NCBI RefSeq assembly: GCF_037042905.1
Contig: NC_087251.1
Span: 372,001 to 436,000 of the forward strand
Length of the DNA: 64,000 nucleotides
Origin: Lytechinus pictus
Taxonomy: Eukaryota
Direction: 5' to 3'
Numbering within the stretch: position 1 is the stretch's first letter; every line of letters begins with the position of its first letter. Shown piece by piece: positions 2,472 to 22,104 of the stretch. A program made the position numbers and the translations under genes. The notes beneath the pieces were generated by a model. That model saw only the letters and a program-made list of their open reading frames with translations. It was not told the origin of the DNA and ran no database searches.

Positions 2472-3046
2472 AGGAGAATGAAACCCTTGAAACCAGCTGA
2501 ATCCATACCAAAGAGAAAAATCAAAGAAACATATTGTTGAACGTTTGAGGAAGATTGAATGAATAATAAGAAAATTATGAGCATTTGAATATTGAGATCA
2601 CTAATGCCATGTAGATCCTCCCATTGGCAATGCGACCAAGATCTGTGATGTCACACACGTACAACTCCCTCATTACTTTAGTACTTATTTCACTTATATT
2701 CTCACTTTTATAGAGTAAGGTGAGGTGTTCTCTTTCAGAGTACAAGTACAGAGGTTTCACAACATTATATCATTGATGAATCGTTTGTCATATGATTAGA
2801 AAGAGCAAAAAGAGATGTTTTGGGGTATATTTTCAGTGTCCAAAAGGGGAGAGTTGTTCATCTGTGACATAATATATCTTGGTCGCATTGCCAATGGGAG
2901 GATCTCCATAGCATTAGTGATCTCGACATTCAAATGCTCACAACTCTTCTATTGCTAGTCCTATTTTACTCAAACTTTTGTTGATCTTATTCTTTGATTT
3001 TTCTGCTTTCACAAAAGCGAACTTGCTCCAAGAGTTTCATTCTCCT
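2472..3046. mobile_element. Kolobok-like MITE (TTAA TSD, AGGAGAATGAAAC termini)
   Basis: TTAA|AGGAGAATGAAACC...GTTTCATTCTCCT|TTAA; near-identical reverse complement of 51212-51795. Confidence 0.82.
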
Positions 3047-3946
3047 TTAATTGCGCCAGTCAAGACAGGAATAACCGTCGTTTCTGGGGATTTCCTTTCT
3101 GGCATTTCACTACGCCGCACAGTGGGCCAGGAGAGAGCAAAAGTGCGCAAAAACTGGTTTTTGGTCATGAAACAAATTTTGTTTTTTCATGTTCTAAGCA
3201 AATATAAGAACCTGTAGAATGTCTCCACACAATATTTTTCCATGAAATTGATTATTAGTTGCAAATTTTTCACAATATTATCTGAAAATGACTCTTTACG
3301 GCTACCGCATGTGTAAATGACACGTTTTAGATATTTCACTGTTGTAACAAAACGGATTGATTTATGTATTGTAACGTGAGACCCTAGCTCCTATCAAAAG
3401 GTAAAATGCTGCAACCACATACTTGTCTAGGGGTATATTATAAGGTCTTTGGTATGAGCCCTTGGGGTGTCACGCGCGTAAAACATTCCCCATAGACTTG
3501 TGTGTTAAAATGGCACTTAAGAAAAATTCATAAAAAATAAATGTGAAATTAGAGGGTCGAATGTTTACTACCTTTGGATAGGATATATATCTGACATTCC
3601 ATATCTGACCAGAGAAGGGTATCGTAGCCAGCTCATTTTAAAAATAAATCGCCATTTATGAAGATAACTATGATGGGATCAAATTCATCAACTGAAACAG
3701 TAAAATTATGGCCCCAATTCTTCCGCCAGTCAAAAAATAGTTCCAAATCATTGATATATCTTCCCAATTTGGGCAAAGGAAGTTCAGTAGTTACCATTTC
3801 TAGAATCAGTGTTAGATTTTGAATCATATTCATACACTTTTGTCAATCAGCAATTGGGTCGAACGAATATATTTAGCCCTCCTGATGTAATTAGGCTCAT
3901 GGTACCTTGGCTGTTTCGGAGAAATCCAGACAACCTATACAGAAAT

Positions 3947-5369
3947 CCCGGGGGGCCACTTACATTGACGAGTGGATACCATGCGCGACCAAAAAAACAC
4001 GTAAAAAGGGTGTCTTTTTCAAGATAGGGCACGTTACATACGTAACGTGATAAGGGTGTCAAAAACACAAAAATATTGAAAAAAGGGTATCTATTTCGCT
4101 CGGAAAATATACGTGTTTAGGGTCAAATATGCGGGGATGATAAAACAAAATCAAAATGTTTTATAAAGGATGTCCTTTTTGCCCCAACACTAAGTGTTTA
4201 GAGTCCGATTTGCGCGAGGTGTGGAAGGTCGGGCCGTACTAAACCAAAATAATGGTGTGTAAAGAAAAACCGACGATCGACGGACCCGTGATATCGCTTT
4301 ACTTGTTTAGAGCTTCATTTCAGGGAATACTTGCCAATTATCGTTTTTTTTTCAATACTTGTTTTGGGGTGCATTTTCAGAATATGGAAAATACATTGCT
4401 GTACTTGTTTAGGGGCTCAATTCTGGGAGTACTTGCCAATACTTGTTAACCCTAATTCTCCCGGGGGGGGGCCATTATGGCCCCCCCCCCCCCCCCCCCC
4501 CTCGACAATTTTCGCGATATATCTGCTGCGCAAATTTTTTTGACCTCGCCGCTCACTGACTTTTTACTTTCAAGTCTCGCGCAAATTTTGAGACCAAATT
4601 TGTGACGCCCGGGTACGTGGTTACGACATTACGCAACATTATGTAAGTGCATGTCAGACCCAAAATTGCTCATAAACGTGATTTCATGTACAAATCCAAT
4701 GCAAATTGTGTATTTGGCCAAAATTCATAAATGTATCATTATTTCTACTTTTAATGATTAAACTTAATTAATTTTGCCTTGTTTATGATCAGAATTAAGT
4801 CTGGAACTATTTCCATCGAAAAAAACAATAAAAAACAAAAAGTAAAAAAACAAAGAAATACATAAGAAATTTAAAAAACAATAAAATACATAAGAAATCG
4901 GTCTTTGTACCAGAATTTTTTTCATTCACAATTGTTAGGAATGCTATAAAGAATATTTTCACCAAACAATAGCATTCTAGGAGCTTTATTTAGTGAATCA
5001 GAGCAAAAAGTATGATTTCATGAATAAATTAGCATAATTAATTCATATAAAATAAAAATATATGAATTCAGTGAAATATACCAATGCAACTGCGTAGATT
5101 ACGTCATTCTCTACCATCATGCAAATTTTCGTTGTGATCGCGCAATCCACGGCTGAGATCTTAAGGGGGGGCCATAATGCCCCCCCCCCCCCCCGGGAAT
5201 GACAAGAATCAAAATCCCCGGGAGATTGAGGGTTAAGGGTAGGGTTTCACACGCCAACACTTGTTAAGGGGTGCATTTTCAGAATATGGAAAATACGTGT
5301 TTAGGGTGCTTTTCAAGACCCCGTGGTCGCGCATGGTATCCACTCGTCAATGGAAGTGGCCCCTCCGGG
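3947..5369. mobile_element. TIR element with 8-bp TSD (CCCGGGGG termini), superfamily uncertain
   Basis: TIR CCCGGGGGGCCACTTACATTGACGAGTGGATACCATGCGCGACC; TSD ACAGAAAT at 3939-3946 and 5370-5377. Further copies at ~29540-29635 and 63620-64000. Confidence 0.85.
4450..5232. mobile_element. piggyBac-like MITE nested in the 3947-5369 element
   Basis: TTAA|CCCTAATTCTCCCGGGG...CCCCGGGAGATTGAGGG|TTAA. Confidence 0.82.
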
Positions 5370-5776
5370 ACAGAAATCCATACTGGGTAGACAAGGGGGG
5401 GGGGGTGAGGACTGGGAACACTGGGAAGGGCATGACTCATGCTCGATCTCCTCAATCAGTCGCACGTGCATGCGCTATATGCACGACACTCACACTCACC
5501 ATCCATATGGACCTACTATATACAGGTACTAGTCCGGTCCATGCACTCCACAATGCATACACGACCGGAGACCCAAGTCCAGCTGACTGACCAAACATTT
5601 GACTCCTTCTCCACTCTCGTTCCCAAGACCAGCATCACATCAATCAAGAATTTATCTGGTAAGTCAACTGATCATCCCTGCTAATTCGCTAAACTATTCA
5701 CGACTGGTCAAGCTCAACAATCAATCAATCTAACTTACTTCACTCACTTCGAACATTCACATTGTTCAGTTAGAGT

Positions 5777-6432
5777 TACCTCGAGCGAAGTTCGTGCAGG
5801 CTCCACTCCACACTACTCTTCACCTACCCGAACTTCGAGACCATGAACTCGATCGGATATTCCGAGTGATAAAAGGTGGGATTTTATGGGGACAAAATAC
5901 AAATTTCATGCAACATCACGATCTTTAAAAACAAGTACAACTAATATTCTTACTTTACACAAAGTTTCGCTTCTTTTTGATGCTTCTATCAGTCTCAAAT
6001 TTGATGATTTAGAGCCAACATGAAGTTCCTCACACGTATAAATATTAATGCGCTGCCGACTTCAAAACATCGCATGCGGGAGGTACCGACTACCGGGTCT
6101 GGTCCGAGCTCGGACCCTCGCGCGCATGCGATGTTCTGAAATCGGCAGCGAATTATTACGTGTAAGGAACTTCATGTTGGCTCTAAATCATCAATTTTGA
6201 GACTGATAGAAGCATGGAAAAGAAGTGAAACTTTGTGTAAAGTAAGAATATTAGTTGTACTTGTTTTTAAAGATCGTGATGTTGCATGAATTTTGTATTT
6301 TCTCCCCATAAAATCCCACCTTTTGTCACTCAGAATATCCGATCGAGTTCATGGTCTCGAAGTTCGGGTAGGTGGAGCGTAGTGTAGCGGTAGTGAAGTG
6401 GAGTGGAGCCTGCACGAACTTCACTCGAGGTA
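5777..6432. mobile_element. Foldback MITE with ~300-bp arms (TACCTCGAG termini)
   Basis: Near-perfect palindrome. ATTGTTCAGT occurs on both flanks (5761-5770 and 6433-6442), with 6 extra bases on the left. Confidence 0.8.
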
Positions 6433-6499
6433 ATTGTTCAGTATGCACACAACGTTGTACGGGGTACGGACAGCCCGACCACCGGACAGCCCGACCCTG

Positions 6500-6659
6500 G
6501 GGAGTGTTTCATCAACATTTTCATCCGACAAGTTGTCAGATCTAGTGACATCTTTCTCTGATGTTGATTCGCTGAGAGGTACTGTTACTATGGTAACTGT
6601 CAGATAAAATGGGACTTGTCGGATGAAACGTCCGACAAGTCCTTTCATGAAACGCCCCC
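6500..6659. mobile_element. Small Harbinger-like MITE
   Basis: GGGAGTGTTTCAT...ATGAAACGCCCCC flanked by CTG; similar termini at 55099-55285. Confidence 0.65.
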
Positions 6660-7381
6660 CTGGACAGCCCGACCCGCTGCCCTGGACAACTCGTCCCGGT
6701 CGAGTTGTCCAGGGTTGGCTCTGAATCGGACAACTCGACCACTTGAATTCTTCTTCAAGATCAACATTTCATGAAATAAAATTTCAAATTTTACTTTAAA
6801 AGTATTTTCCCGCATAATCCATGTTTACAATGGATACAATACATACAATACATTCTCGACAGAAAATTTGACATTTCAGTGCATTTTGAGCTATTTTGAA
6901 AGAAAATAAAGCGAGTTCCCTTGCAACGAGATTACTGCCCCCGGTATCTTGATAAATTAATAATCCGATACCGCCGGCGAGCTGTGTTCAATGTCTGCAA
7001 ATTTGAGTTGATTTTTCTGTCACTTGACATATTTTAATGGTGAGGGTGTGCTATTTTGTATTTTCATATTCCATTTTCACATTTCCTCTACTTATTTAAA
7101 GTTATTGTATTTCACAAAACTGATACTTAATGCAAACTTTTTGAGATAGTTCACCTGGAAAAGACACCCGATGCGGTGCTTCGCCTCGCAGGCCAGCTGG
7201 GTGACCGGCTGTGCTGTGATTGTAACTGAGTGTGGCACTCGGCTCAACGAGCTATGCGAGGTCGAACTTACTTATTTTAGTAAATTTTTCCGTCTCTTGA
7301 CATATTCCAATGGCGAGAGTGTTCTATTTTTGTATTTTCACACTTCTTCCACCTATTAAAAAGTTTTTTTATGTCACAAAT

Positions 7382-7829
7382 ACCGTGTTTACACTTAATC
7401 GGCATTTTAATCGGCTCGCGGTTCTGAACCGCGAGCCGATTCAGCATCGGCTTTTTCATAGAGTGTAAACTCGAGCAACTTGAATCGGCTCGCGGTTCAG
7501 AACCGGCAATTTGCACCACCAAAGTAGTAGGTTCTGAACCGCGAGCCGATGCAGAATCGGCTTTTTTACTACGTGTAAACAGAAAGCCGATTCTGCACCG
7601 GCAATTTGTGCGCATTTCAATTACTTTACCATTGTGACGTAATTGTAAGCGCACTGATCCAGCGTTGTCTTTATTATGACGTATATTGTAGGTATGCGTA
7701 TCATTTCAGGTTTTTGCATCGGCTCGCGGTTCTGAACCGCGAGCTGTAACAACGTGTAAACGCAATCCAATGCCGATTCTGCATCGGCATTTGGTTCAGA
7801 ACCAATTGCCGATTAAGTGTAAACAAGGT
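7382..7829. mobile_element. Palindromic MITE inserted in the left arm of the foldback element
   Basis: TIR ACCGTGTTTACACTTAATCGGCA / TGCCGATTAAGTGTAAACAAGGT, flanked by AAAT; absent from the right arm; internal repeats of TCGGCTCGCGGTTCTGAACCGCGAGCCGA. Confidence 0.8.
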
Positions 7830-8687
7830 AAATGCTGATTATAGGACAGTGACTGCGTAGTTGGAATGCGCTTCCCCAAACCATCCTTGACGCCCCTCTT
7901 TGGAGGCCTTAAACAAAGTTCAGGCCAGGGGGTGCTTCCAACCAACATCTAAACCAATTATGGAAATAGATTTGAAAATGTCTCAGTATGTAAGTTATGA
8001 AGTTTACAATATGGAATAGTTTATTGAAAAAAGAAATATATTCTTTATTTCTACCGTAATTGAAAAACTTAACTTTTTTATCAAAATCTAAAACTTGCCT
8101 TTCGTTATCGAAAAACATGTGTCTCATTTTTTACCTGTCGGTTTATACTGTCACAACTTTTTTAAATGCAACTTCCATTGGAAACAACGGGTCTTCTGGA
8201 GGATACCAGCACTTGGGCTGGTACCAACCACCTACACCCGGGATGAGGAGAAGAGGTTTCATACTCGACATGCGATGGCCTTTCCATTTCTTTCACGAGC
8301 AGAAATAATACTGAGTTCCAATGACTTGGGCATCAGAGCGGCAGTCCCTTGATCGATGAGGTAATACAGCTTTTTAGATACAATAAATCAATTTTTGTGC
8401 ACTTCATGCAGGCATATCAAAGTTCAATTTTTTTTCTTCAAATTCTTTTAAAGAAAGAAAGGACAATTGAATTTAACAAAAAATTAACTTATTTTTTTCT
8501 TATTTTATTAATAAAAATTCAAAATTGCTTCTTAAAAATGTGAGTAACCACTACATTGTTAGGTTTAGTAGAAGTTGTAACATTCTAAATTAATTTTGGG
8601 TATGTAGAGGTTATGCTTAATTCATGTGGAACATTTATGTTATATACATCTTCTAGATGATACCAAGTATCGTTCAAGTGAGTTTGA

Positions 8688-9151
8688 AGGGAAAGTTCAC
8701 CCTGACAAAAAATTTATTGTAAAAACAACAGAAATAATTAAAAATATTGCCGAAGGTTTGAGGAAAATCCATCAAAGAATTTAAAAGTTATTAGAATTTC
8801 AATTATTTGATTTGTGATGTCATATGCAACCAGCATTTCTACATAATGAATGGTAAAAAATCAATTGTCATTTTCTCAGAAAATGCTTTTACTATACCTT
8901 TTGTATATCAAAAGACAAAAAATTTCACACCCAAACATGAAAAGAAAACAAAAATAAGTCATCAGGAACCATTAAAAAAAAAAAATCATGCACTTTTAAT
9001 TACATAATATATTTGGCAGCTGCTCGTTTATGACGCCACAAATCCAAACTTAAATTGAATAACATTTTTAATCTTCAAACATTCACCAATATTTTTTTAT
9101 TATTTTTCTGCTATTTTTACAACAAAATTTTCTTCAGAGTGAACTTTCCCT
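8688..9151. mobile_element. Kolobok-like MITE
   Basis: TTGA|AGGGAAAGTTCACCCTG...CAGAGTGAACTTTCCCT|TTAA. Confidence 0.7.
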
Positions 9152-10199
9152 TTAAGATTGAATTAGTTGCAATAAACTTAACTTTAATATATTTTAAAAA
9201 TGTATTTGCTTCTAAATTAAAGGTTGAAATGGTATGATTTGTTTCAGTAGCAAAAGAGGTGCAGAGCATCAAATAGTTGAAATTACTATATCGTCAATAC
9301 TTTATTTTATTTCTATCTTTCCAGCTCTTTGAGACCACCTGAATTGCAAACTCTGTATGGCCAGTTTTTGTATGACAAAAAAAAGATGAGGGTTGAAAAT
9401 CCCTCTAGCTAAGCGAGGGATCATTTAATTGCCATGGAAACCAAATATAATAATGTATAACAGGTTGTATATTCCTGATAGTGCAATTGTTAATGTTAAT
9501 TTATATTGGCACTAATGTAATTTTAAGATTGTCCTTATTGTTAGCTTTACATAAACACCAAAAGCAGAGGATATTGTTCCCAACTGGAATTGTGATGATA
9601 AATAAGACTATGCTATAGTCATATTTATCATCATAATAACATATTTGGTAATGTAATACTATTTGAAATTTTGAACCAGTATTTCATCTATGTGGGATAT
9701 ATTTTATATACACTGAAGTTCAATATGTGTTACTATGTAATTTTACATCTGATCAAGTTTACCTTAATGTTACTTAATAAAACCCACTTAACTCCAAAGA
9801 AGTATTTTGAATATTTGGTTCTTTCACTATTGTGTATCCTTTTTCTCGCTGAATATAAATTTACCTTTTAATGAGAGCTGTGGTGACAGGTTCCATGACA
9901 TTTGCTCTGGCAACAATTGCTCCGCTGTAAATTCCACACCGTAATCTTATGAACAGCTTCAACCAGTAAGGCCTAAACCTAACCTAAAACTATATTGCAA
10001 CCCTAAAACCTCTATCTTAAGGGGCTTTCACAATTGCTTGTGCGATCGTTTGCGATTACTTGGTCACAATATATGTTGCACAGTATTGCAACAGTGAACG
10101 GTCGTAAGCAGTCGCACCACCAATTGTGAAAGGGACAAAATTAAGCCCGGGCAATTGTCGCAGGAGTAAATGTTGTGTCACATGATAATCAGATGGATA

Positions 10200-11260
10200 T
10201 AATTGGAGAGATGAAGAGGGGGGAGGATGGAGATGATGAAAGGTGGGATGGCCATGATGAGGAGTGATGGAGTTGATGAGAGGGGTGTGGATGATGTGTG
10301 CATGGGTGGAGGTGATGAGAGGACGGATGGGGATGATGTTGGGAGGGATGGAGATAAGGTTTAGAGATGAGGATGGAGATGGTGAGGAGTGGTGGAGATG
10401 ATGTGGAAGTGTTGACATGACTTGGGGTGGAGATGAAGAGGAGGGATTGAGATGAAACAGGGATGGAGATGCAAAAATGGTTGAAGATTTTCTTTAACTT
10501 TGGTCTGCAGGACTATCCCCATAACATATTTATCTTGGTGCCCCCTACAAAAGTTCAAGGCCCCCAGTGCCCCCAAAGCTGAATAAACCCAGCTACGCCA
10601 CTGATGAGATCGAGTCAAATTGCCTTCGGGATTGCATCATTTCCAAGAGGTTCTCAATAATATTCCTGAGATGATGAAAAGGATGTTGGTGGCGATGATG
10701 TTTGTGATTATGATAATGATGAACATTGGTGATGACGGTGACGATGATGATGCTTGCTGATGATGGTGATTATAGTGGTGATACGATGATAATGATGACA
10801 ATAATGGTGGATGATGTTGTGATGATGATGGTGGTGATGGCAATGATGATTGTGATGATGAAGATAATGGTGATGCTTATGATGGTGATTATGAGGGTGA
10901 TGATAGTGGTGATGGCGATGATGATAAGGACTGGATGAGAATGATGCTGGTGGTGATGTTGGTGTGATGATGATGGTGGTGATGGCAATGATTGTGATAT
11001 TGATGGTGGCGATGATGTTGAATGGTAATGTGATGATGGTGATTAAGATAATGATGGCAATGATGATAGCGATAGTGATTATGGTGATGATGATGATAAG
11101 TGATGATAATGATGGCGATGAATATAGCGATAGCGATGATAATTAAGATAATGGTGATGATAATGATGGCGATAGTGTTTATAGAGATGATGATGATGGT
11201 GGTGATGGCACTGATTGTGACGATCGTGATGGTGGCGATGATAGAGATGATGGTGGTGAT
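10200..11260. repeat. Degenerate (GAT/GGT/GGA)n low-complexity tract
   Basis: Direct inspection; it produces the spurious Met/Ile/His-rich ORFs. Confidence 0.9.
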
Positions 11261-11269
11261 GTTTCTAAA

Positions 11270-11620
11270 AGGGATGGTCCGGGCTGAAAATATTTATATC
11301 TTAATACGTAGAGTAGAATTCACTGAGCAAAATGCCGAAAATTTCTTCAAAATCGGATAACAAAATTATTGAAGTTTAAAGTTTAGCAATATTTTGTGAA
11401 AACAATGAATATTCATTAGGTGGGCTGATGATGTCACATCCCACTTTCCATTTTCTTATGTTATTACTTAAAATCATTTTTTCATTATTTCATGTCTCCC
11501 TTATAATGTAATAAGTTGCAGCAATAAATTTCTAGTTCTTGGAGGAAAAAAATTGAATAAACCTTACTTCATATAATAAAATACAAAAGAACAAATGGGG
11601 ATGTGACATCATCAGCCCAG
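11270..11620. mobile_element. Truncated Kolobok-like MITE (AGGGATGGTCC family)
   Basis: Homologous to 27299-27715. Confidence 0.75.
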
Positions 11621-12605
11621 TATTGAACAAAAATAAACAATAAAGAGTAAAAAAGACACTTTCCTACAAAAATTGTAAACTTCATAACTTACATACTGAG
11701 GCATTTTCAAATCTATATCCTTAATTTGTTTATATGTTGGTTGGAAGCACCCCCCCTGGCCTGAAGGCCTCCAAAAAGGGGCGTCAAGGATGGTTTTGGG
11801 AAGCACATTCCGACCACGCATTCACTGTCCTATACTCCTATAATCAGCTTAGTGACATTAAAAAAAACTTTTTAATAAGTGGAAGAAGTGTGAAAATACA
11901 AAAATAGCACACTCTCGCCATTGGAATATGTCAAGAGACAGAAAAATTTACTAAAATAAGTAAGTTCGACCTCGCATAGCTAGTTGAGCCGAGTGCCACA
12001 CTCAGTCACAATCACAGCACGGTACCTCACAGCACAGCCAGTCGCCCAGCTGGCCGGCGAGGCGAAGCACCGCATCGGGTGTCCTTTCCAGGTGAACTAC
12101 CTCAAAAGTTTGCATTAAGTATCAGTTTTGTGAAATGCAATAACTTTAAATAAGTAGAGGAAATGTGAAAATGGAATATGAAAATACAAAATAGCACACC
12201 CTCATCATTAAAATATGTCAAGTGACGGAAAAATCAACCCAAATTTGCAGACCTGGAACACAGCTAGCCGGCGGTATCGGATTATCAATTTATCAAGATA
12301 CCGGTAATCTCGTTGCAAGGGAACTCGCTTTATTTTCTTTCAAAATAGCTCAAAATGCACTGAAATGTCAAATTTTCTGTCGAGAATGTATTGAAGAAAC
12401 ATGGATTATGCGGGAAAATACTTTTGAAATAAAGTTTGAAAAAAACTATTTCATGAAATGTTGAAGAAGAATTCAAGTGGTCGAGCTGTCCGATTCAGAG
12501 CCAACCCTGGACAACTCGACCGGGACGAGTTGTCCAGGGCAGCGGGTCGGGCTGTCCCGGAACCCATTGCACACACAACCAAATTACAAAGAGTAGCCAT
12601 TATTG

Positions 12606-13480
12606 TATGGCAGTGTATCGTATTGCCGGACACCTTTATTTCATTGCTTTAAAAATGACAACTAGAGGAAATACAATCAAGAAAAATTCACACTTGCTAT
12701 TCCAAATATTATGAAAATTATGAATATGATAAAATTATTTTATATTTACCAACCATTTTCTTTGCATCGCACTTGCCGCATACCCCTCCACGATAAACAA
12801 TTATTTTGTGTGCGCGACAAATTACATCATGATTCCGGACGCGCGCCGGACGGGTAAAGATATCCTTGATTATAATGATGTAAGAGCAAATTTGTGTGAT
12901 TTTTTTCTTCTTATATCATATCATGAGTAAATTCTAAGTATTATTTGCTTTTTTATATAGAATCTGAGCAGATGTTGGTAATAAATTTGTGTTTCATAAC
13001 TTATTTTATTTTGTCTTGTTAGCTGCATGTTCCAATAATAATATGCTCGCCTTCGTATCGTGACGCTCATCAAGTTCTATCGATGCGCTGCCGATCGACG
13101 GCTCTGCTCACGGTAAACCTCGCGCGCGGGTACCGTCTTGAGAACTAGCCGTCGACGATCACCCACAATACACCATACCTCATCATTCGATCGAAGGAGT
13201 GGACGAGATTGAAATTCGGCAAATCAGGCCCATATTTCTGTTAGAAAATATATCAATTGTTAATGGAAAACTATGTAATATGATATTTTAAGCATTTTCT
13301 GTCATTTTAGAGATAAATAAGGTAAAAGTTGGATTTTTTCGCCTTGTTTTTGCAATCTTGTTCTATGTATTGCTCTGTGAAATTAAATTGCGGAAGTCTT
13401 ACGGTACGAAATTGTTTTCGAACGCAGTAATATGCGCGTCCGGAATCATAATAGTGTCCGGTAATACAATACGTGACTAT
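12606..13480. mobile_element. Degenerate TIR element
   Basis: GTATCGTATTGCCGGACAC / GTGTCCGGTAATACAATAC at the ends and an inner inverted pair ATGATTCCGGACGCGC / GCGCGTCCGGAATCAT. Confidence 0.6.
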
Positions 13481-15082
13481 ACATGCACAGTGGTCGCTCG
13501 TTCGTTGTAACTTCGGTCAATACAACAACAGCACTTCAGTCACTCATAACAGTCTCGAGCACACAACAAGCACATCTATCGGCCATCCAAGAACATTTCC
13601 AGTAGCAAACCACAGATGCCCAGCATACATCATGTTCATTCAGACTTCTCTCTAACTGACATTCTGTCTCACGGATAGCATGGTGATTAAGTCGAGGGTC
13701 GATGACGGGGACGTTTGTTCAAAATATACGAACACTCTATCTATAAAATACTAAGAGTAAGACTTAAGACTATTTACTACAATTCCATGATTCACATCAA
13801 AGATCACTGGTCACTACTCGATCTAATCAGACATTCGTGCAACTAAACCAGGTCTAAGTAATTTCTCATTTGGAAACCATCAAGTCGAGTTATACCCGAT
13901 TAAAACATTTATTAACAACAAATAACTTTAACAATTCAAACTCTTGTAAATTCATGAATAGTAAAAGTGGCATTTTTATCAGATGTTTATATACAGTATT
14001 GACATATTTACATGCTTAAAACTAAGTCCTAGGTTACATGGCTGACGTCTTAATACAAATAATTAAATGTTCACCGTCCTAGGTTACATGGCTGACGTCT
14101 TAATAAAAATAATTAAATGTTCACCGAACATTTAATAAACCTACACTGTAAATAAATGACGAGAAATTTCTGCTTCGTCACTCTTTGAATAAACTATCTT
14201 AAATTCTACAACATAGTCTGTTTGATTTGTGTTCAGTATTAAAAAGTGTGAACTTCATAAATATTTCTATCTAACTTCATCATTTCCATAACCTTGCTGC
14301 GAGTAGGCCTATTCTATATTCTCTACGGTCTTCCGAACAACATTCCAAGTTGGTATAAAGATGTCTTTGTTTCTACACCATCACTTTGCTTAACATATCT
14401 AATGCCTGCATCTAGATATCAAATCCTTTTCTCCTAACTATAAAATAATCCTAAACTTTCCTGTGTCCAACCCATTTGCGCCACTTCAATGGCCATTCCA
14501 AGGTCTCTCCACCACGGCCTATTTCCTGCCACTAACTCCTAGTAATATCTGGCCTCGAGATTTTATCTCCCAAATATTAGACTAACAAAGTCCTTTTTAT
14601 ACCAACAACTTTCTATGTTCAACCTGGTCCATAACAAGACATAAAACTTAACATTCCAACCATTCTAACTCGTTGCATTAGAATCAAGTAATGTTCTGAT
14701 TAAATATTTGGAAATAACTTTATAATAATTAATACACTACCAAAATACAAGTTATGAATAATTGTATATGTGCAAGAATAACTTGGAAGAATGAGAGAGA
14801 AGGGGGGGGGGGGGTAAGAGTCGAAACGCCAAGAGGGATTCCATGCTGTCGAAGAATAGAAGAAACATCGAAGAAAACATGGTGAAGACTGCTTAAATTC
14901 GTTCCCTATCCGGGATTGAATGTAATAAACACTGAAGAAAACATGGTGAAGACTGCTTAAATTCGTTCCCTACTCAGGATTGAATATAAGAAAGCAGCTA
15001 TGAAGTCATCTCAGATGGACAGGACATTCGGTAGACGGTGCCCAATGTTTGCTATGATGAACAGTGATCGCTGGTATGGAGT

Positions 15083-15505
15083 TAGACAGCTGGCAGCTGT
15101 CTGTTTCGAGGAGTTTTTAAACATTTTTTATTTTTTTAATTTCTCCTCGTACACAGACGGCTCGCTATCGTGCAGCCACCATTAGGGGACTTACAATGCA
15201 AAATCCCCCCGTCGGGGCTTTTCAATTTTTGTCTTAAATGAATCAAACTTTTGAAAATTAACGCGACCGAAATGCAAATTAATATTCCCTCTTTGCATTA
15301 ATTGCCAAAAAACGGGGAAAATCAAGTTTAAAGGAACAAAAACAACTTCACTGCCCTGTTTTATCTGAACTTAATACACATAAACATATGGCCATTGGGT
15401 CCCCTGTACAGATCGCGCTAGAACTTCGGTCTCTGTATTTGGTGAGTGAAGCCAACGGAGTTCAGCTGAACAACCAACATAACAGAGACCGAAGCTTTTG
15501 GTCTA
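15083..15505 (+). mobile_element. TAGAC...GTCTA-family non-autonomous DNA transposon, 9-bp TSD
   Basis: Termini TAGACAG/TGGTCTA; TSD GTATGGAGT at 15074-15082 and 15506-15514; subterminal hairpin CTTCGGTCTCTGT...ACAGAGACCGAAG. Confidence 0.82.
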
Positions 15506-16241
15506 GTATGGAGTAGGCCTACTGAGTACGCGATGCAAGATGACAAGTACAGAGTACCGAGTACGCGATGCATGACGACAAGTACAGAGTACCGGTGCAT
15601 GACGAACAGTACAGCTACAGGGTGTGGCAGGCGTTTCGGCAAGTGAAGACCGGCGAGCGAGATGAGTGTGATGTAACTGAACTTGGTTCATCCATCAAGA
15701 CGTTCCTTATGCAGGATTGTCAATTGTACTGCTGGATTGGTGACAATCCTTATTCAGGGTATTTTAGACTTCCTTTCTGCCAACTGCTGTAACTGTTGGC
15801 GACGTTCCTTATTCAGGATTGTCACTTGTCGAACCTCTCATTTCTGCTGCCGTCAATCTACTTCGTTCGAGCTGCCCTCGATCGGCCTCTCGGTACCGTA
15901 CTTCAACGCCAGCCAATTTCGTCGAAGGGAAGGGGGGGAATTCATATTCTTCCATGCACAATACAATAAAATCTACATCCACATTCTCATTTCAATCGAT
16001 TTCTCCGACTTAAAAAAAAACAGTCTACAACACTTTAGTTTTATAGACACATCATAAAATTAACACCTGAATATTAATCTCTCAAGACTTAGGCAACTAC
16101 GACGAGGTACAAAACAAAGTCTACATAAACTACGAGGTACCCTTGCATTTTGTCCCTACGTTACCCCAATTTCCCTAACGCTACGATGTTTCATACTTCT
16201 GCGTTTATCAATTGAGAAAGAGGGAAAACAAAAACAAAACT

Positions 16242-17908
16242 CAGGGACTCGGTTTTATAATTATAAGGGGAGCAATAAAAAGCTCTCCTAGAACTTTTAA
16301 GGAGAGCGGTAGAGGAGCACTTCAAAAAGCTCTTCTTCAACGTACAAGGGGAGCTTTTTGCCCAATTAACAAAATGGATGGAGGAAATGTATGTACTATA
16401 AAATTACAATCAACAACCAAAGGAAGTATTTATAATTGTTTTACAATGTATTGTAATTAGATTGTGTGTTGTAAAACCTGTTTTAGTTAGGTTTTGACTT
16501 GGCTAAAAGTTAAGTCACTGACAATTTTTTTTTTTTTTTTCGGGGGCTCCATTTTAATTTTTTTGTCAAATTTCGGGGGCTCTTTTTAAATGCTACTTTT
16601 TTGTATTTTGAGGAATACCTGTTCACTTATTAAGGAATTATTACTTTTTGTTTAATATTAAATATTGTATGATTTTTAAAGTTATTTATCATGTTTAGAA
16701 TCTTGGATGTGGGTGTGTGTGGATGGGTGGGTGTGTGTGGGTGTGTGCGTGTGTGTGTGACTGTGAGTTGGACTTGGATATTTTATAAATGAATTCAATA
16801 TCTAATTTCTACTCCATTTATTCCAGTACAATACCCTAGTCAGCCATGTACATGTAATAAAGGCCCATCACATACCCTAACTTTTCCTGAAGTTCTTTGA
16901 AAACGCAGATCTCCATGAAAATTTAATTTCTCTATGGGGGAGTCTAAATTTGGTGAGAATGTATTCATTAAGAACTTAAATATACATGACAATGAAGAAA
17001 TCATCAAACTTTATTGGCAGTTTTGAATAATATTCCTGAAATATAAACTCTGTCTGAAACAGAAAATCACCATCATTGAGGCCTTTACTGAGCGAATTGT
17101 CCCCCAGAGCTCTGGCAGAGAGACAGAGCTCCAACTGGCTAGCTAGTAAAAGCGCCAATGCGTGAGCCTGCCGCCGTCCTTGTAAAAAAGATGGAGCTTT
17201 GTTTGATGATTTATTGTCTGATATAATACCTCATCCCCTAGAAAAAGAAAACAAATGATTTTTTAGTTATAATTGATAAATTAGATAACTTATTTTGGAA
17301 GTTAATAAGCCGTTTTGAAAAGCAAAGCCGAATGACAACTCACCAATGCTAGGTTACTAGACTCTGGGATTTATTTCCTGTGTAATTCGAATTATTTTAT
17401 CACAGAATTGTGATATCTGTAGGGGAAACATGTGCATTCGAAATGGCACACGGTGGTAGTCATAATGGACCCCTATACATGCAACTCTTTCCCGACCGTT
17501 GCGTTGATTTTTTTTTCCATACCTGGTACCATGTGTATGGAAATACCGGTACGTGGTACAGAAAAAATAACGCAACTTCGGAATTTGAAACTGCGCTACT
17601 CGCTACTTTTAAGGCTTATTCGTGATTTTGAGTGTGGATTTTGGATGGTTTTTAAATGGTAAGCGGAGCTCGAGCATATGGCACTAGTGGGCGGTTGAGT
17701 TGTTATCACTCGGCAATAATTTCGGGGGCGACATTCAGATTTTATGTCGCCCCCGAAAGCATGATTTTGGGTGATTTCGAGGGCGACTTTAGGCATTTTC
17801 GCGCAGGTCAGCTATCGCGAGGCGCGCGATAAATCGCACTACCAAAAATGGATTAAGGCGCGCATGTAGCGCGCGATCGCTCTCGCGCGCCTTAAAATCG
17901 AGTCCCTG
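16242..17908. mobile_element. hAT-like non-autonomous element
   Basis: TIR CAGGGACTCGGTTTTA / TAAAATCGAGTCCCTG; flanks share AAAACT (imperfect TSD). Confidence 0.65.
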
Positions 17909-19383
17909 AAAACTCTCCTTAAATTCTGTTGTGTACCACATACAAAATAAAATCAGCAATCACGCAATTTTTCTAAGACTAATGTTAAGGGCAGACATCA
18001 AAATATTCATCTCATCGAACAGGCATCAAGCCAAAAATTTCTATAAAGAACTTCGAAATTCCAGTTCTGACAAATTTAATCGAAAATTCCTTTTTATAGA
18101 AAAGGGGAGGGGGGTATTATGTAACCTTAAGAAGTTTAAAAGAAATATTCCACTTACGATTCTTGCTAAGATCAAACGCTTGGACTATCAACTGTAAGAC
18201 TGGACTAAAGAACAAACTCAACTGTCTTGGGGTTCCCTCTGAACAAATACTCTCTAAGATGCAAAGTGAAGAAATTTTCACCCCCTGCCCCTTTTATACC
18301 CCTAGGTATCGGGCCCCTATCGCCTGACAAAAACTTTGTGATGTCATCACTCGCAAAACACGAAATACAGACTGTACCATTTCCGGTAGGGAATAATCAC
18401 TTCTAGTGACTAAAATAGGATCATTAAAGACATCATTTTATAATAAAAGGGAAAAATAGAGCATCAAGCTAATCACTTTAAAGACATTTACAAGGTAAAT
18501 GACAATTTATCGAGAAAACTCGCTCCGTGCATCGCCGTGCACGCCATTAACCTAACCTTGTCCCACGTACTAAATCCTATGTATTGCTGTGGTTCTAAAA
18601 ATAGCACAATCCGCCTCCGTTACTATATTCATTGACTGCTGTAGTAAACACTCAGCTGATTTCACTACGTTCATTCAAGATTCAAAACAAACAACAGCTG
18701 TGAGTGGTGGCGTTGTATTAAAGTGAAATTTTGAGAAGATTTTGGATAATTAATTCTGGCTGGAAGTAAGCACAGATCTAAATAGAAAATATTAAAAGAA
18801 AATTTTGGGGGTATTTCTTCACAGTATTTCCAATTCACGGTGCTCATTGATGAATGATTGTTTTAAGTGATCGAAGATTTTCAAGATAAAATGATAATCT
18901 CTTCAGAGGTAATTTTGGACGAAACCATTTGACAACTGACAATGGGGGGTTTTAGCAATTTTTTTTTTCATGAGCATTTCTTTTACAAATTGCTGCCGAT
19001 TGCTGCGCTATAAATACCATGACGGTCTTTGTTATAGTTCATGCTTTACACTGATACCAAATTTAGCTGCATATACGTGCATTTTCTGGAGATATAACAA
19101 ATTTTCCAACCACATGTTCGCCGTATTTATCACAAAAATTGTTCCAAGTTAGTGTCCCATTATGCGCGTGCCGAACGTTGAGGGTGACATTAAACAAATC
19201 CCCGTCGCGTGCTGGGAGAGAGAGAGGGGGAGGGAGGGAGACGGGTAGGGGCAATCCAATGTTTACATTAAATGGTTGAAATGACCATAAATGTCTGGCT
19301 CAGATTGTGACTGGTATCTGCCTAAAATATTTTCGTTAAACCTACATAAAGACAAGCTTTCATTTCCACTTCCAGTAACTATA

Positions 19384-20734
19384 CAGTGCGTAAAAAAACC
19401 GGGACAGATTTGAAGTCTTTAAAATTTTTGTTTCAAATTATGATCTCTATATTTTGGTGTTAATAGGTGCTCTGAAGTCTTATCTTTCAAATGCCATTTA
19501 AAAAATTAGTGTCGTTCATGCTTGAGCGAACAAGGAATGTTTTTGTCTGGGGTTAAAAAGGAGGCTTGCACCAAAATGGCATAAAATGATAAATATGATG
19601 ATCGGACTTCTTGCTAATCAGCAGACTTCCTCTTAACCTTTCATTATCTTTGCCATAATTTTTCAAATTATGCGGTCAAAATTAATTTTCAAATCTATTC
19701 ATTTGCTTGAATTGTTCTGTTGTTGTTTCTTTTTAATATGTTCTCTTTTAGCTTTGAATATTCCTTCTTCAAACAAAAACAATTTTTTTTCAACCGAAGT
19801 ATGGGAGAGCGTGTATTTTTTTTCAAATCCTTTCATTGTGTTCTACAAAGGTTATGGTGCCTTTTGAACAGTGCCATACAGATGGGCGGGGCTCGGGGAT
19901 GCCCCCCCCCCCCCCCCTCAATTGAAAAATATCATGACCAAGAAAAAAAAGTGGAAAAGAAATAAAAGGAAAGGTAGAAAGTAAAATATATTATTTTCTG
20001 AATATTATGTCAAAATCTATCACAAAATTTGATATTGTTATTAAAGAGTGGGAATATTTGCGTGCTCGCTTCACTCGCTCACAACTTTTTAATACATTTT
20101 ACCCAATCTGCGTAATCTAGCTCCTTCAAAATTGACTCAATACACCATTGCCATTGAACGACATGAATCCCTTCCTGTTTGTCCTGTCAAGCATAAAATT
20201 AAACTTGGTCAAGGAATCAATAACGCCTTAAAAAATTGATTCATGTCTTTAAAGGTACCATAACATAATTTGTTTCACATAATAAAAGGATTTGAATAAT
20301 TACAAGTTTTCCCAATAATAATGCAAATCTTCTTGCTTGGGTTGACAAAAAGTCTTCTTTTTATATGATGGAAAATTCAAAAGTAAAAGAAGTTTAAATG
20401 AAAAAACAAACAAAATAATTCAAGTAAATAAATAAATTTGTAAATAAAATTTGACACCATAATTCGAAAATTATGGCACAGATTATGAAAAGGTTAAGAG
20501 GAAGTCTGCTGATTAGCAAGAAGTCTGATCATCATATATTATGCCATTCTGGCGCAAGCCTCTTTTTGAACCCTGGCAAAAAGTCCCGTGTTCGCTCAAG
20601 CATGAACAATTTTTTTTTTGCATATCAAAGATAAGATTTCAGAGCATCTATTAACATCAAAATATAGATATCATAATTTGAAACAAATTTTTTTTATAGA
20701 CTTCAAAACTGTCCCGTTTTTTTGATACGCACTG
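19384..20734. mobile_element. Tc1/mariner-like MITE with long TIRs
   Basis: TA|CAGTGCGTA...TACGCACTG|TA with ~280-bp inverted arms. Confidence 0.82.
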
Positions 20735-20859
20735 TATAATAATACGTGTATCACAACTTCATTTTGATGCCAAACTGTTTCATCCCGTGTTCCATATCTG
20801 ATATGCTGTCATCCTGAGAAGATTAGTTCTTAAGATAAGATTATTAGTTTGTTTTGTTG

Positions 20860-21040
20860 GTGCCACTATCTTGTCATCTTCAGTCCTGCCAATCGGAATG
20901 ATGAGTGAGGAGGCGCAAGAAACCAGGAACAAAGACAAGATCTACAGACGAATGCATGCGAGAAAGACATCTCGTACAGACACCATGAGTGATGTATTCC
21001 ACAGACTGATGGTAACAGGTGACAATGTGATTACTAGCAA
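20860..21040 (+). pseudogene. Transib transposase C-terminal fragment (RAG1-core homologue)
   Basis: GATILSSSVLPIGMMSEEAQETRNKDKIYRRMHARKTSRTDTMSDVFHRLMVTGDNVITS matches the Transib pattern LPIGxxSEEAQEARNK...HxRKxSR...DVFxRL; no upstream part of the ORF was found. Confidence 0.85.
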
Positions 21041-21727
21041 GTCTTTAAGAGTACAACAATCACAGCCTCTCCCTCTTGCTCTATCATTTATCATTGGAAT
21101 CATTATTTTAAATATTTTACTGTCCACTTCTGGTATCAATCCATTTTAATTCATGTAGGTGTGCATCATTGTACCCAGGGAATGAAAATACTCCTTTGCA
21201 TTTTTTTTACAATTTCACTTTGAATTTTACAATTCTGGATTCATGGTATAGGGCGCCCTCTTTAAGCGATACTCAAGTCACCAATTGAATTGTTTGTACC
21301 CCGAGCACAGAGTTTTCTTGTTTGTTTGCCTGTTGGTGTGTTTGCTGTTTGCTAATATGCTTAATTACTGCTGAAATTTCTCTAAAACTAGTTTCTGAAA
21401 TTTTGAAACTTATTGTACAATTAGAAACATGTAATTTCTTCTCAAATGTTAACAGCCAATCAGAAAATGGTATTTTGACGACGTCATCAATATTTGAAAA
21501 TACTTTTATTGAATTCTACGGGTGAACTTACCCCTATCTACCAACTTTAATCGTACAAATATGTGAATAATGGGTTTTGGCGCACTTTGGATTCATTCTG
21601 GCCCACTGTGCGCTGGTATGTGGAGCCAACGTAGTTCAGCGGAACAACCAAATTCCAAAATACAGACTGAAGCTTCATTTTGGTCTAGCGCCAGTCATGC
21701 CAATGCAGTGACAGTGTGTAGCCTGTA

Positions 21728-21947
21728 TACCCAGTTGTTGTGTGTCCGGATAATCAATTTTAGAAAGTCATTTGGAAAAAATTACAAGCGAAGTTTCATC
21801 AATTTTTAGTACAAAATGTTAGGAAATATTATAAAGAAAAAAATAGAAGATGATTACAAGTATTGAATTCATATTTTTAGTGTAATCCAAAGACAAAAAA
21901 AAGGCTTCAAAAAGAAAAACTGTCCGGACACCCGACCCCCCATCCTA
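21728..21947. repeat. Interspersed ~220-bp repeat, inverted copy at 36121-36356
   Basis: Direct reverse-complement similarity; TGTCCGGACA palindromes near both ends. Confidence 0.75.
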
Positions 21948-22104
21948 CTGTCTGTAGACTGTAGTGTAGTGTAGTAGCCTGTAGGCATGTGGACTAACTT
22001 TTGTTATATCCTATGCCTGCCCTGGCCTGGCAAATGCCAGAGATCGGGGTATTCATTCATGGTATCAACTCTTTATTTTCATTCTAGGCCTATTCTGATG
22101 AAAG

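Follow-up and report, generated by a model that had tools for sequence, protein, structure and literature searches.

A 64,000-bp stretch of the Lytechinus pictus genome, hereafter the window, contains two inverted V(D)J-type heptamers at the outer limits of an 18.5-kb segment (3118-21610), which raises the questions of whether this segment is one transposable element, to which group of RAG1-related elements it belongs, and whether it can still move. Our analysis indicates that 3118-21610 is very probably one non-autonomous copy, now dead, of a DNA transposon of the canonical Transib type. As a kind of object it is known: an ordinary dead Transib copy, enlarged to 18.5 kb by repeats inserted within it. 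Transib backbone accounts for only about 1.7 kb of it; the rest is a 15.45-kb composite block and a 1.35-kb element. A first-pass annotation of the window had proposed a single, heavily nested Transib element that has symmetric RSS23-like ends, retains a transposase relic and is flanked by a 5-bp duplication. Our results support all of this and reproduce its coordinates and end motifs as given; several of its finer points are revised below.

Ends and target site

The 5' terminal inverted repeat (3118-3155, plus strand) comprises the heptamer CACAGTG (3118-3124), a 22-nt spacer and the nonamer-like block GCAAAAACT (3147-3155), and the 3' terminal inverted repeat (21573-21610, minus strand) has the same layout, with the heptamer reverse-complemented at 21604-21610, a 22-nt spacer and the nonamer-like block GCCAAAACC (reverse complement of 21573-21581). 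Across the 38-bp ends, positions 1-13 and 23-37 are the same save for one private change, and positions 14-22 differ, in agreement with the mid-spacer divergence described in the first-pass annotation. The bare heptamer is not special (9 occurrences in the window, 5.06 expected), and the 13-mer CACAGTGGGCCAG occurs in the window exactly twice, in inverted orientation, with a mean of 0.49 matches in shuffled sequences when up to two mismatches are allowed. Compared with the majority of twenty 5' ends of the family, the left end carries a private C>A at 3149; the 7/9 match of the left nonamer to the RSS consensus, although present as annotated, is due to this change, the family majority at both ends being GCCAAAAC. 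The majority of twenty 5' and twenty-seven 3' family ends keep heptamer positions 1-3 and nonamer positions 5-6, and the spacer variant AATGAATCC of the 3' end is common to copies that carry the 1.35-kb insert.

The left target-site duplication copy, CGCCG (3113-3117), fits the family target CGNCG, and the right copy, CGCTG (21611-21615), matches it at four of five positions, the sole difference being a C>T at a CpG. This imperfect duplication counts against the single-copy reading. No empty site was found: the flanks (about 3052-3117 and 21611-21722) occur only once in the assembly, their best non-self matches being confined to the adjoining high-copy repeats, and the assembly therefore offers no alternative haplotype for an empty-site comparison. 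When sequencing runs were searched with the locus, the best run contained at most 0.27 of the query words, and none reached half; contigs of four runs (three samples) were mostly repeat noise, and none of the 15 joints listed, from a set that includes 1,969 more, skips 3118-21610.

Architecture of the 18.5-kb copy

The backbone consists of plus-strand blocks that are collinear and non-redundant relative to the approximately 2-kb copies of the same family. The 5' subterminal block (3118-3370) is collinear with positions 1-257 of these copies (90-93% identity); the second block (18824-19383), whose first 5 nt are the second copy of a (G)TATT duplication, corresponds to positions ~257-770 (83-86%); the third (20735-20858), the last 5' non-coding piece before an internal deletion junction, corresponds to positions ~770-880; and the 3' subterminal region (21079-21610) is 86-94% identical to other copies. 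The blocks join at exact points, 3370 to 18825 and 19383 to 20735, and because they are collinear, non-redundant and meet at exact points, we read 3118-21610 as one element, not two. The joins 3366 to 18825 and 19381 to 20735 recur in other family copies and in contigs from sequencing runs, the former as a direct join in three of the four runs.

The interruption between the first two backbone blocks is a composite nested block of 15.45 kb (3371-18823), whose junctions were read directly: it is bounded by the 4-5 bp duplication (G)TATT, and other copies join across it. Nine nested units were separated within it, at 3947-4441 with 5233-5369, 4446-5236, 5776-6433 (a foldback), 6658-12560 (a large inverted-arm element), 7381-7833, 12605-13482, 13481-15049, 15083-15506 and 16241-17908. 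Nine is a minimum; the stretches 3371-3946, 5370-5775, 6434-6657 and 17909-18823 lie outside these units. The heavy nesting described earlier thus stands; the count of more than ten insertions becomes nine separable units in this block, and the backbone itself is interrupted at two sites only. A Pfam scan of 23 inner ORFs of at least 80 aa yielded no credible match (22 blank and one sub-threshold chance match to FlhC, 16 bits against a cut-off of 27); these 23 were drawn from 32 ORFs; of the nine others, one overlaps the left flank, seven at 10056-11360 are of low complexity, and the last is the relic frame, which was scanned separately. No kelch or PHD (RAG2-like) family was matched by the 23 inner ORFs, a scan that decayed frames would escape and that concerns a copy whose parent element was not recovered whole.

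The second interruption (19384-20734) is a non-autonomous element of 1,351 bp with inverted arms of about 400 bp (inverted pairs I8 and I11), termini CAGTGCG...CGCACTG and a TA on both sides, lacking transposase coding sequence. A TA duplication together with inverted ends that start with CAGT marks Tc1/mariner elements, and the insert is Tc1/mariner-like by these features. Its junction with the Transib backbone recurs at five or more other loci, of which three show perfect target-site duplications of their own, and it was therefore carried in with the element rather than inserted later, a departure from the earlier reading in which nested insertions had inflated the element. Typical 2-kb copies lack the insert, run contigs join 19381 directly to 20735, and among the copies found only 3118-21610 combines it with a transposase relic.

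Transposase relic and the wider family

The relic comprises 73 codons (20859-21074, plus strand) with a conserved SEEAQE.RNKD block and is the sole transposase match in the window. Protein comparison against Transib and RAG1, run as the annotation had proposed, placed the frame 20802-21149 on residues 394-458 of the HzTransib chain 6pqn_A (E 4e-8), and showed no match of the relic to RAG1 chains even at E up to 10. The relic corresponds to residues 395-467 of a 495-codon Transib frame on contig 15 of the same 812-Mb genome (94.5% identity, E 2.4e-37) and to residues 601-673 of a 697-aa relative, P0001. It ends 536 bp from the right end, with SEEAQE about 690 bp in; a fragment had been noted at about 570 bp, correct as to its presence and only approximate as to its place. 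Instead of the intact ORF of about 700 aa with a full DDE triad that an autonomous element would carry, 73 codons are left and the regions with the two aspartates are gone; a deletion of about 160 bp at 21074/21079, private to this copy, took out the last 28 codons and the stop. The copy encodes nothing functional.

Pfam assigned no family to the 115-aa relic frame, to a 473-aa contig-15 frame or to the 697-aa relative, so that the assignment of the protein depends on homologue searches and on the match to the PDB sequence. The 495-codon frame matches 6pqn_A over residues 69-459 at E 3.8e-83, compared with only E 5.8e-5 for the amphioxus RAG1L chain 6b40_A, so that the transposase belongs to the canonical Transib clade and the label "RAG1-like" is withdrawn. 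In homologue searches, this frame found a Lytechinus pictus protein at 97% identity and, as the nearest named Strongylocentrotus purpuratus (S. purpuratus) protein, one at 63%; its closest full-length relatives are transposase-only proteins of 665-720 aa.

The element is neither hidden nor special: the non-autonomous family to which it belongs is abundant, the assembly yielding at least 144 left-end and at least 173 right-end candidates, and all 40 scored per search match at 95% or more. A genome search for paired ends, as had been suggested, located the same two ends paired at 14 other independent loci, 1.8-8.5 kb in length, of which 12 have perfect 5-bp duplications, one a 4/5 duplication and one none. 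Both observations on which the first reading could have failed thus came out in its favour: the peptide matches Transib transposase, and the two ends pair with each other elsewhere between 5-bp duplications. At other loci, 44 of the 49 distinct ends of the family adjoin CGNCG, in a genome region of 30-43% G+C. Identity between the copy at 3118-21610 and other copies is 91.4-91.7%, compared with 91-95% among those copies. Scoring covered the best 40-64 candidates of each search; the counts are therefore minima, and an intact transposase may have escaped.

Among the candidates scored, no full-length intact transposase was found in the assembly. In a search with the 697-aa relative (best 64 of 126), only the contig-15 site spans more than about 120 residues free of stops, and just residues 239-683; likewise, in an ORF scan of eight transposase loci, the 495-codon frame was the sole open frame of at least 250 aa covering transposase. 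As a candidate for the autonomous parent this frame was rejected, about 238 N-terminal residues being missing and no family ends lying within 6 kb; its family homology ends 11 bp beyond the stop codon, where another repeat begins. Copies on contig 11 cover residues 6-677 of the relative with several frame changes, and a copy on contig 8 extends, with stops, across about 22 kb; both were likewise set aside.

The residues retained here (395-467) differ from those in the common 2-kb copies (only 441-495), and on this sequence comparison 3118-21610 is a deletion derivative independent of them. Its deletion junction had no second genomic site among the candidates scored (best 40 of 758; 12 of 12). 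In the history that we propose, an autonomous parent would have lost nearly its whole transposase gene by internal deletion, leaving 73 codons; this derivative would then have gained the 1.35-kb Tc1/mariner-like element and been moved by a transposase acting in trans, by cut-and-paste, into a CGCCG site with formation of the 5-bp duplication; the deletion of about 160 bp, point decay and the nested-repeat pile at 3370/3371 would have followed insertion. Because the autonomous parent was not recovered whole, the order of deletions is inferred from partial copies. By analogy with the superfamily literature, the transposase would bind the heptamer and nonamer-like block of both 38-bp ends, cleave by a nick-hairpin route and integrate with a 5-bp stagger at GC-rich sites.

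Alternative readings and known systems

The segment could instead be two truncated Transib insertions whose ends face each other 18.5 kb apart by chance. One base does differ between the flanking pentamers, independent sites could look alike given the strong CGNCG preference, and abutting copies exist elsewhere (at L033/L034 a second end lies 9 bp past a full copy); against this, the internal blocks continue at exact reference positions with small insertion-type duplications and without overlap or redundancy, their 5'-to-3' order and orientation match a single copy, and both joins are present in other copies and run contigs, which leaves this explanation highly improbable. We regard as equally remote an origin from a RAG-like (RAGL/TransibSU-type) element in which RAG1-like and RAG2-like genes were once present. 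An exact RSS heptamer and an RSS23-like layout would suit such an element, and the host group has RAG1L-RAG2L loci according to PMC4411706, but the E-values of the long frame, the failure of the relic to match RAG1 chains, the transposase-only nature of the closest full-length relatives and the lack of kelch or PHD matches in all 23 inner ORFs point to canonical Transib.

A single Transib copy could also still be mobile: its ends would be functional, and a Transib transposase resident in the genome would act on them. In its heptamers and over most of both ends the copy agrees with the family majority, it shares 97% identity with some family ends, a stop-free 495-codon frame exists on contig 15, and insert-bearing derivatives have transposed, since three of four such paired copies have their own perfect duplication. 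However, no full-length open transposase frame was found (best 64 of 126 candidates; eight loci ORF-scanned), the contig-15 frame is truncated and lacks nearby family ends, the copy is about nine times the usual length, and it carries a private change in the left nonamer-like block and about 8% divergence; we consider this reading very unlikely. With no intact full-length transposase found in the assembly among the candidates scored, present-day mobility is unsupported, and we judge the copy to be immobile today. There is similarly a slim chance that the contig-15 frame has been retained as a transposase derivative, perhaps with a domesticated or regulatory role, within a family recently or still active, with 3118-21610 as the surviving precursor of the short insert-bearing subfamily, a role suggested by the combination of insert and relic at this locus alone.

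As a single dead Transib copy, the locus presents a clean textbook anatomy, with RSS-like ends, a 5-bp duplication and a strict CGNCG target, and illustrates how independent internal deletions yield non-autonomous derivatives able to carry a passenger transposon. Its importance beyond annotation is small and it opens no new question; it may serve the curation of echinoderm repeat libraries and the masking of this region.

All hallmarks of the copy are already published for Transib. Kapitonov and Jurka 2005 (PMC1131882) established the link of Transib to RAG1 and RSS, sea-urchin families included, and described 5-bp duplications, 38-bp RSS23-like ends, GC-rich targets and the elements Transib1_SP and TransibN1_SP of the purple sea urchin. 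As there described, the latter share with the present family an echinoid host, a CGNCG-type 5-bp duplication (CGGCG for Transib1_SP), 38-bp RSS23-like ends, a transposase-only organization and a population in which non-autonomous derivatives are many and intact autonomous copies few or absent. With the nearest named S. purpuratus protein only 63% identical to the long frame and a Lytechinus pictus protein 97% identical, ours probably represents another family, of the Lytechinus lineage. The Hztransib element of Helicoverpa zea (PDB 6pqn and related), as described in PMC4840297, shows nick-hairpin cleavage and invariant, GC-enriched 5-bp duplications, and resembles the present family in its homologous transposase, cut-and-paste movement and heptamer-like termini. 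It is, however, an active, autonomous insect element with ends that barely resemble the RSS nonamer, whereas the copy described here is dead, and the ends of its family conserve a 15-nt inner block that closes with a 6-7/9 nonamer match; the family target is strictly CGNCG. RAGL/TransibSU/ProtoRAG elements, as described in PMC4411706, belong to the same superfamily and have CAC-initiated ends and 5-bp duplications; they encode RAG1L and RAG2L, whereas the transposase here is far closer to canonical Transib and no RAG2-like coding was seen in the 23 inner ORFs. Relative to the V(D)J RSS23, the heptamer CACAGTG is identical, the 22-nt spacer falls within 23 ± 1, and the five positions described as universally conserved in PMC1131882 (heptamer 1-3, nonamer 5-6) are all present. 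Unlike RSSs, which lie beside gene segments, these sequences bound a transposon and are flanked by a target duplication, and their nonamer match is only 6-7/9; both spacers being 22 nt, both ends are of the 23 type, and the element therefore lacks the 12/23 asymmetry of a V(D)J pair.

Paired ends and target sites

Each end of the Transib copy at 3118-21610, on the plus strand from 3118 and on the minus strand from 21610, opens with CACAGTG and a 22-nt spacer, followed by GCAAAAACT on the left and GCCAAAACC on the right, so that direct reading of the sequence bears out the first-pass annotation's description of RSS-like termini. Across positions 1-13 and 23-37 the two ends differ by a single base, and they are unlike throughout positions 14-22. 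Their opening 13-mer occurs at only two sites in the 64-kb window, mutually inverted; the CACAGTG heptamer alone is unremarkable (9 observed versus 5.06 expected). The flanking pentamers, CGCCG and CGCTG, are mismatched by a C>T change at a CpG.

Searches of the assembly returned at least 144 candidates for the first 100 bp of the element and at least 173 for its last 200 bp, and in both cases all of the best 40 candidates, which were scored, matched at 95-97%. Many loci have a left and a right end in the correct orientation, separated by 1.8-8.5 kb. Two sets of stretches (13 and 5) were fetched and contain 14 further paired copies that are independent; L038 and L069 are one locus, and L033 and L034 were counted once because they represent the same segmental duplicate. 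The two end types joined into one element by the first-pass annotation pair with each other elsewhere, with a perfect 5-bp duplication in 12 of the 14 copies, 4 of 5 matching bases in L043 and no duplication in L065. Across all fetched loci, CGNCG adjoins 44 of 49 distinct family ends, and four of the remaining five are one base off. The majority sequence of 20 5' ends and 27 3' ends carries GCCAAAAC at either end, so that the better nonamer match of the window copy's left end comes from a C>A substitution at 3149 that is private to this copy.

The duplicated loci L033 (589-6730) and L034 (552-6695), on contig 8 at ~38.03 and 28.73 Mb, hold 6.1-kb family copies with identical flanks in opposite orientation, indicating segmental duplication. 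In each, a second Transib end lies 9 bp beyond the first copy, in a CGG-rich target.

Backbone and nested insertions

Three stretches of the window copy (3118-3370, 18824-19383 and 20735-21610) are collinear with a 2,067-bp copy and form a backbone of ~1.7 kb, the other 16.8 kb consisting of two inserts. Single-copy flank extends for only ~65 bp to the left of the element and 112 bp to its right. The flank repeats at 2718-3050 and 21723-21950 are very high-copy, with at least 1,483 and at least 2,431 candidates, respectively, at 96-97% identity.

The first insert (3371-18823) has a 4-5-bp duplication, (G)TATT, at its borders, and position 3366 is joined directly to 18825 in other family copies and in contigs of three of four sequencing runs. 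The insert is composite, with nine units separated by self-comparison and genome searches, and the more than ten insertions proposed by the first-pass annotation are plausible. A small inverted-end element (3947-4441 and 5233-5369) is split by a ~790-bp high-copy repeat (4446-5236) and followed by a foldback at 5776-6433. In the ~5.9-kb element at 6658-12560, two inverted arms (0.9-1.35 kb, 94-100% complementary) enclose a core containing a GAT/TGA-rich microsatellite with strong GC skew (10694-11261); at least eight similarly built genome copies exist at 91-94% identity, these copies lack the piece at 7381-7833, and no ORF with a family match was found in the element. A ~880-bp high-copy repeat (12605-13482) adjoins a low-copy unit (13481-15049), the only other copies of which (94-95%) occur on contigs 1 and 3 as pairs with a spacing of ~10 kb, suggesting that the unit is a portion of a larger tandemly duplicated segment. 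Beyond another repeat (15083-15506) lies a 1,668-bp repeat (16241-17908), with 93-99% identity to 39 other scored copies and no coding capacity seen, which is much younger than the host Transib. A joint from 6405 to 15131 in sequencing-run contigs represents deeper nesting. None of the 23 ORFs tested in the first insert gave a credible Pfam match.

The second insert (19384-20734) has the termini CAGTGCG.../...CGCACTG, ~400-bp inverted arms and a duplicated TA, and is Tc1/mariner-like by these features. Its junction with the Transib was found again at five other loci, four of which hold paired copies 1.83-2.1 kb in length, a perfect duplication of their own flanking three of these; all junction-sharing copies carry the form of the 3' spacer seen in the window copy. 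This recurrence of both junction and spacer variant indicates that the second insert predates the arrival of the window copy and moved with it. The short insert-bearing copies correspond to the window form less ~20050-21152.

Transposase relic and candidate sources

The frame at 20802-21149 aligns with residues 394-458 of the Helicoverpa zea Transib transposase whose structure has been solved (6pqn_A, E 4e-8), confirming the transposase fragment called in the first pass; a Pfam search of this frame gave no match. Its conserved SEEA.E.RNKD block is what we take to be the carrier of the third catalytic residue (motif 10). A peptide search of the 812-Mb assembly, with all 12 candidates scored, gave eight matches, one of which (contig 15, 94% identity) lies within a stop-free 495-codon Transib transposase frame (L045:2845-4332, contig 15 of assembly G000 at ~7470344-7471831, minus strand). 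By tblastn, the relic at 20859-21074 is 94.5% identical to this frame over residues 395-467 of the latter. It is also the sole match in the 64-kb window to P0001, a relative of 697 aa that comes from a public assembly and is 71% identical to the contig-15 frame; since the match spans only the 73 residues 601-673, what survives of a canonical Transib transposase is roughly one tenth, and nothing else.

The common 2-kb copies keep residues 441-495 and the stop. The window copy, with residues 395-467, has a private deletion of ~160 bp at 21074/21079, and its junction was found neither among the best 40 of 758 candidates nor among the 12 peptide-search candidates. Because the retained residues differ, the window copy and the 2-kb copies are independent deletion derivatives of one parent. 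Other partial copies keep residues 264-473 (L032) and 388-495 (L031). End-region identity is 91.4-91.7% between the window copy and others and 91-95% among the others; on sequence divergence, the window copy is a middle-aged to old family member.

The contig-15 frame aligns with chain residues 69-459 of 6pqn_A (E 3.8e-83) and only at E 5.8e-5 with amphioxus RAG1L (6b40_A). Its identity to P0002, an annotated protein of Lytechinus pictus (321 aa), is 97%; a Strongylocentrotus purpuratus protein reaches 63%. It covers only residues 239-683 of P0001, lacking ~238 N-terminal residues; family homology ends 11 bp past its stop, where another repeat begins, and there is no family end within 6 kb of the frame. 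The frame may be either a gene that has been retained or a master copy truncated only recently. The P0001 genome search, in which the best 64 of 126 candidates were scored, revealed no intact autonomous element. A contig-8 copy was rejected as an autonomous source, being spread over ~22 kb with stops, as were the contig-11 copies, which belong to a second family (57% identity to P0001, 74-76% to the window relic) and contain several frame changes. The latter form a cluster (L059-L062, ~0.21, 0.43, 0.96 and 1.18 Mb) in which nearly the whole transposase is covered and two copies look identical. Separately, L031 (contig 8, ~39.006 Mb) carries a 312-codon open frame on the plus strand (1-936), which begins at the edge of the locus and lies upstream of a 3' piece of a Transib.

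Comparison with known Transib elements

Transib transposases bind the element ends, cleave by nicking and hairpin formation, and integrate at GC-rich sites with 5-bp duplications, according to the portions consulted of PMC4840297 and PMC1131882. All testable defining features of Transibs were found in the window copy; those of an autonomous element, a RAGL element or a 12/23 RSS pair were not, with 23 inner ORFs covered for RAG2-like kelch or PHD matches. In canonical Transibs the transposase is the only gene, RAG2-like genes belonging to the TransibSU/RAGL group, as stated in the excerpted text of PMC4411706; that text covers RAG1L/RAG2L loci and does not describe the family of the window copy. 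Sea-urchin families were reported in 2005, including, in the sections of PMC1131882 consulted, TransibN1_SP and Transib1_SP, the latter of 4,132 bp with a CGGCG duplication and a 676-aa transposase from two exons. The Transib in the window is genuine but ordinary.
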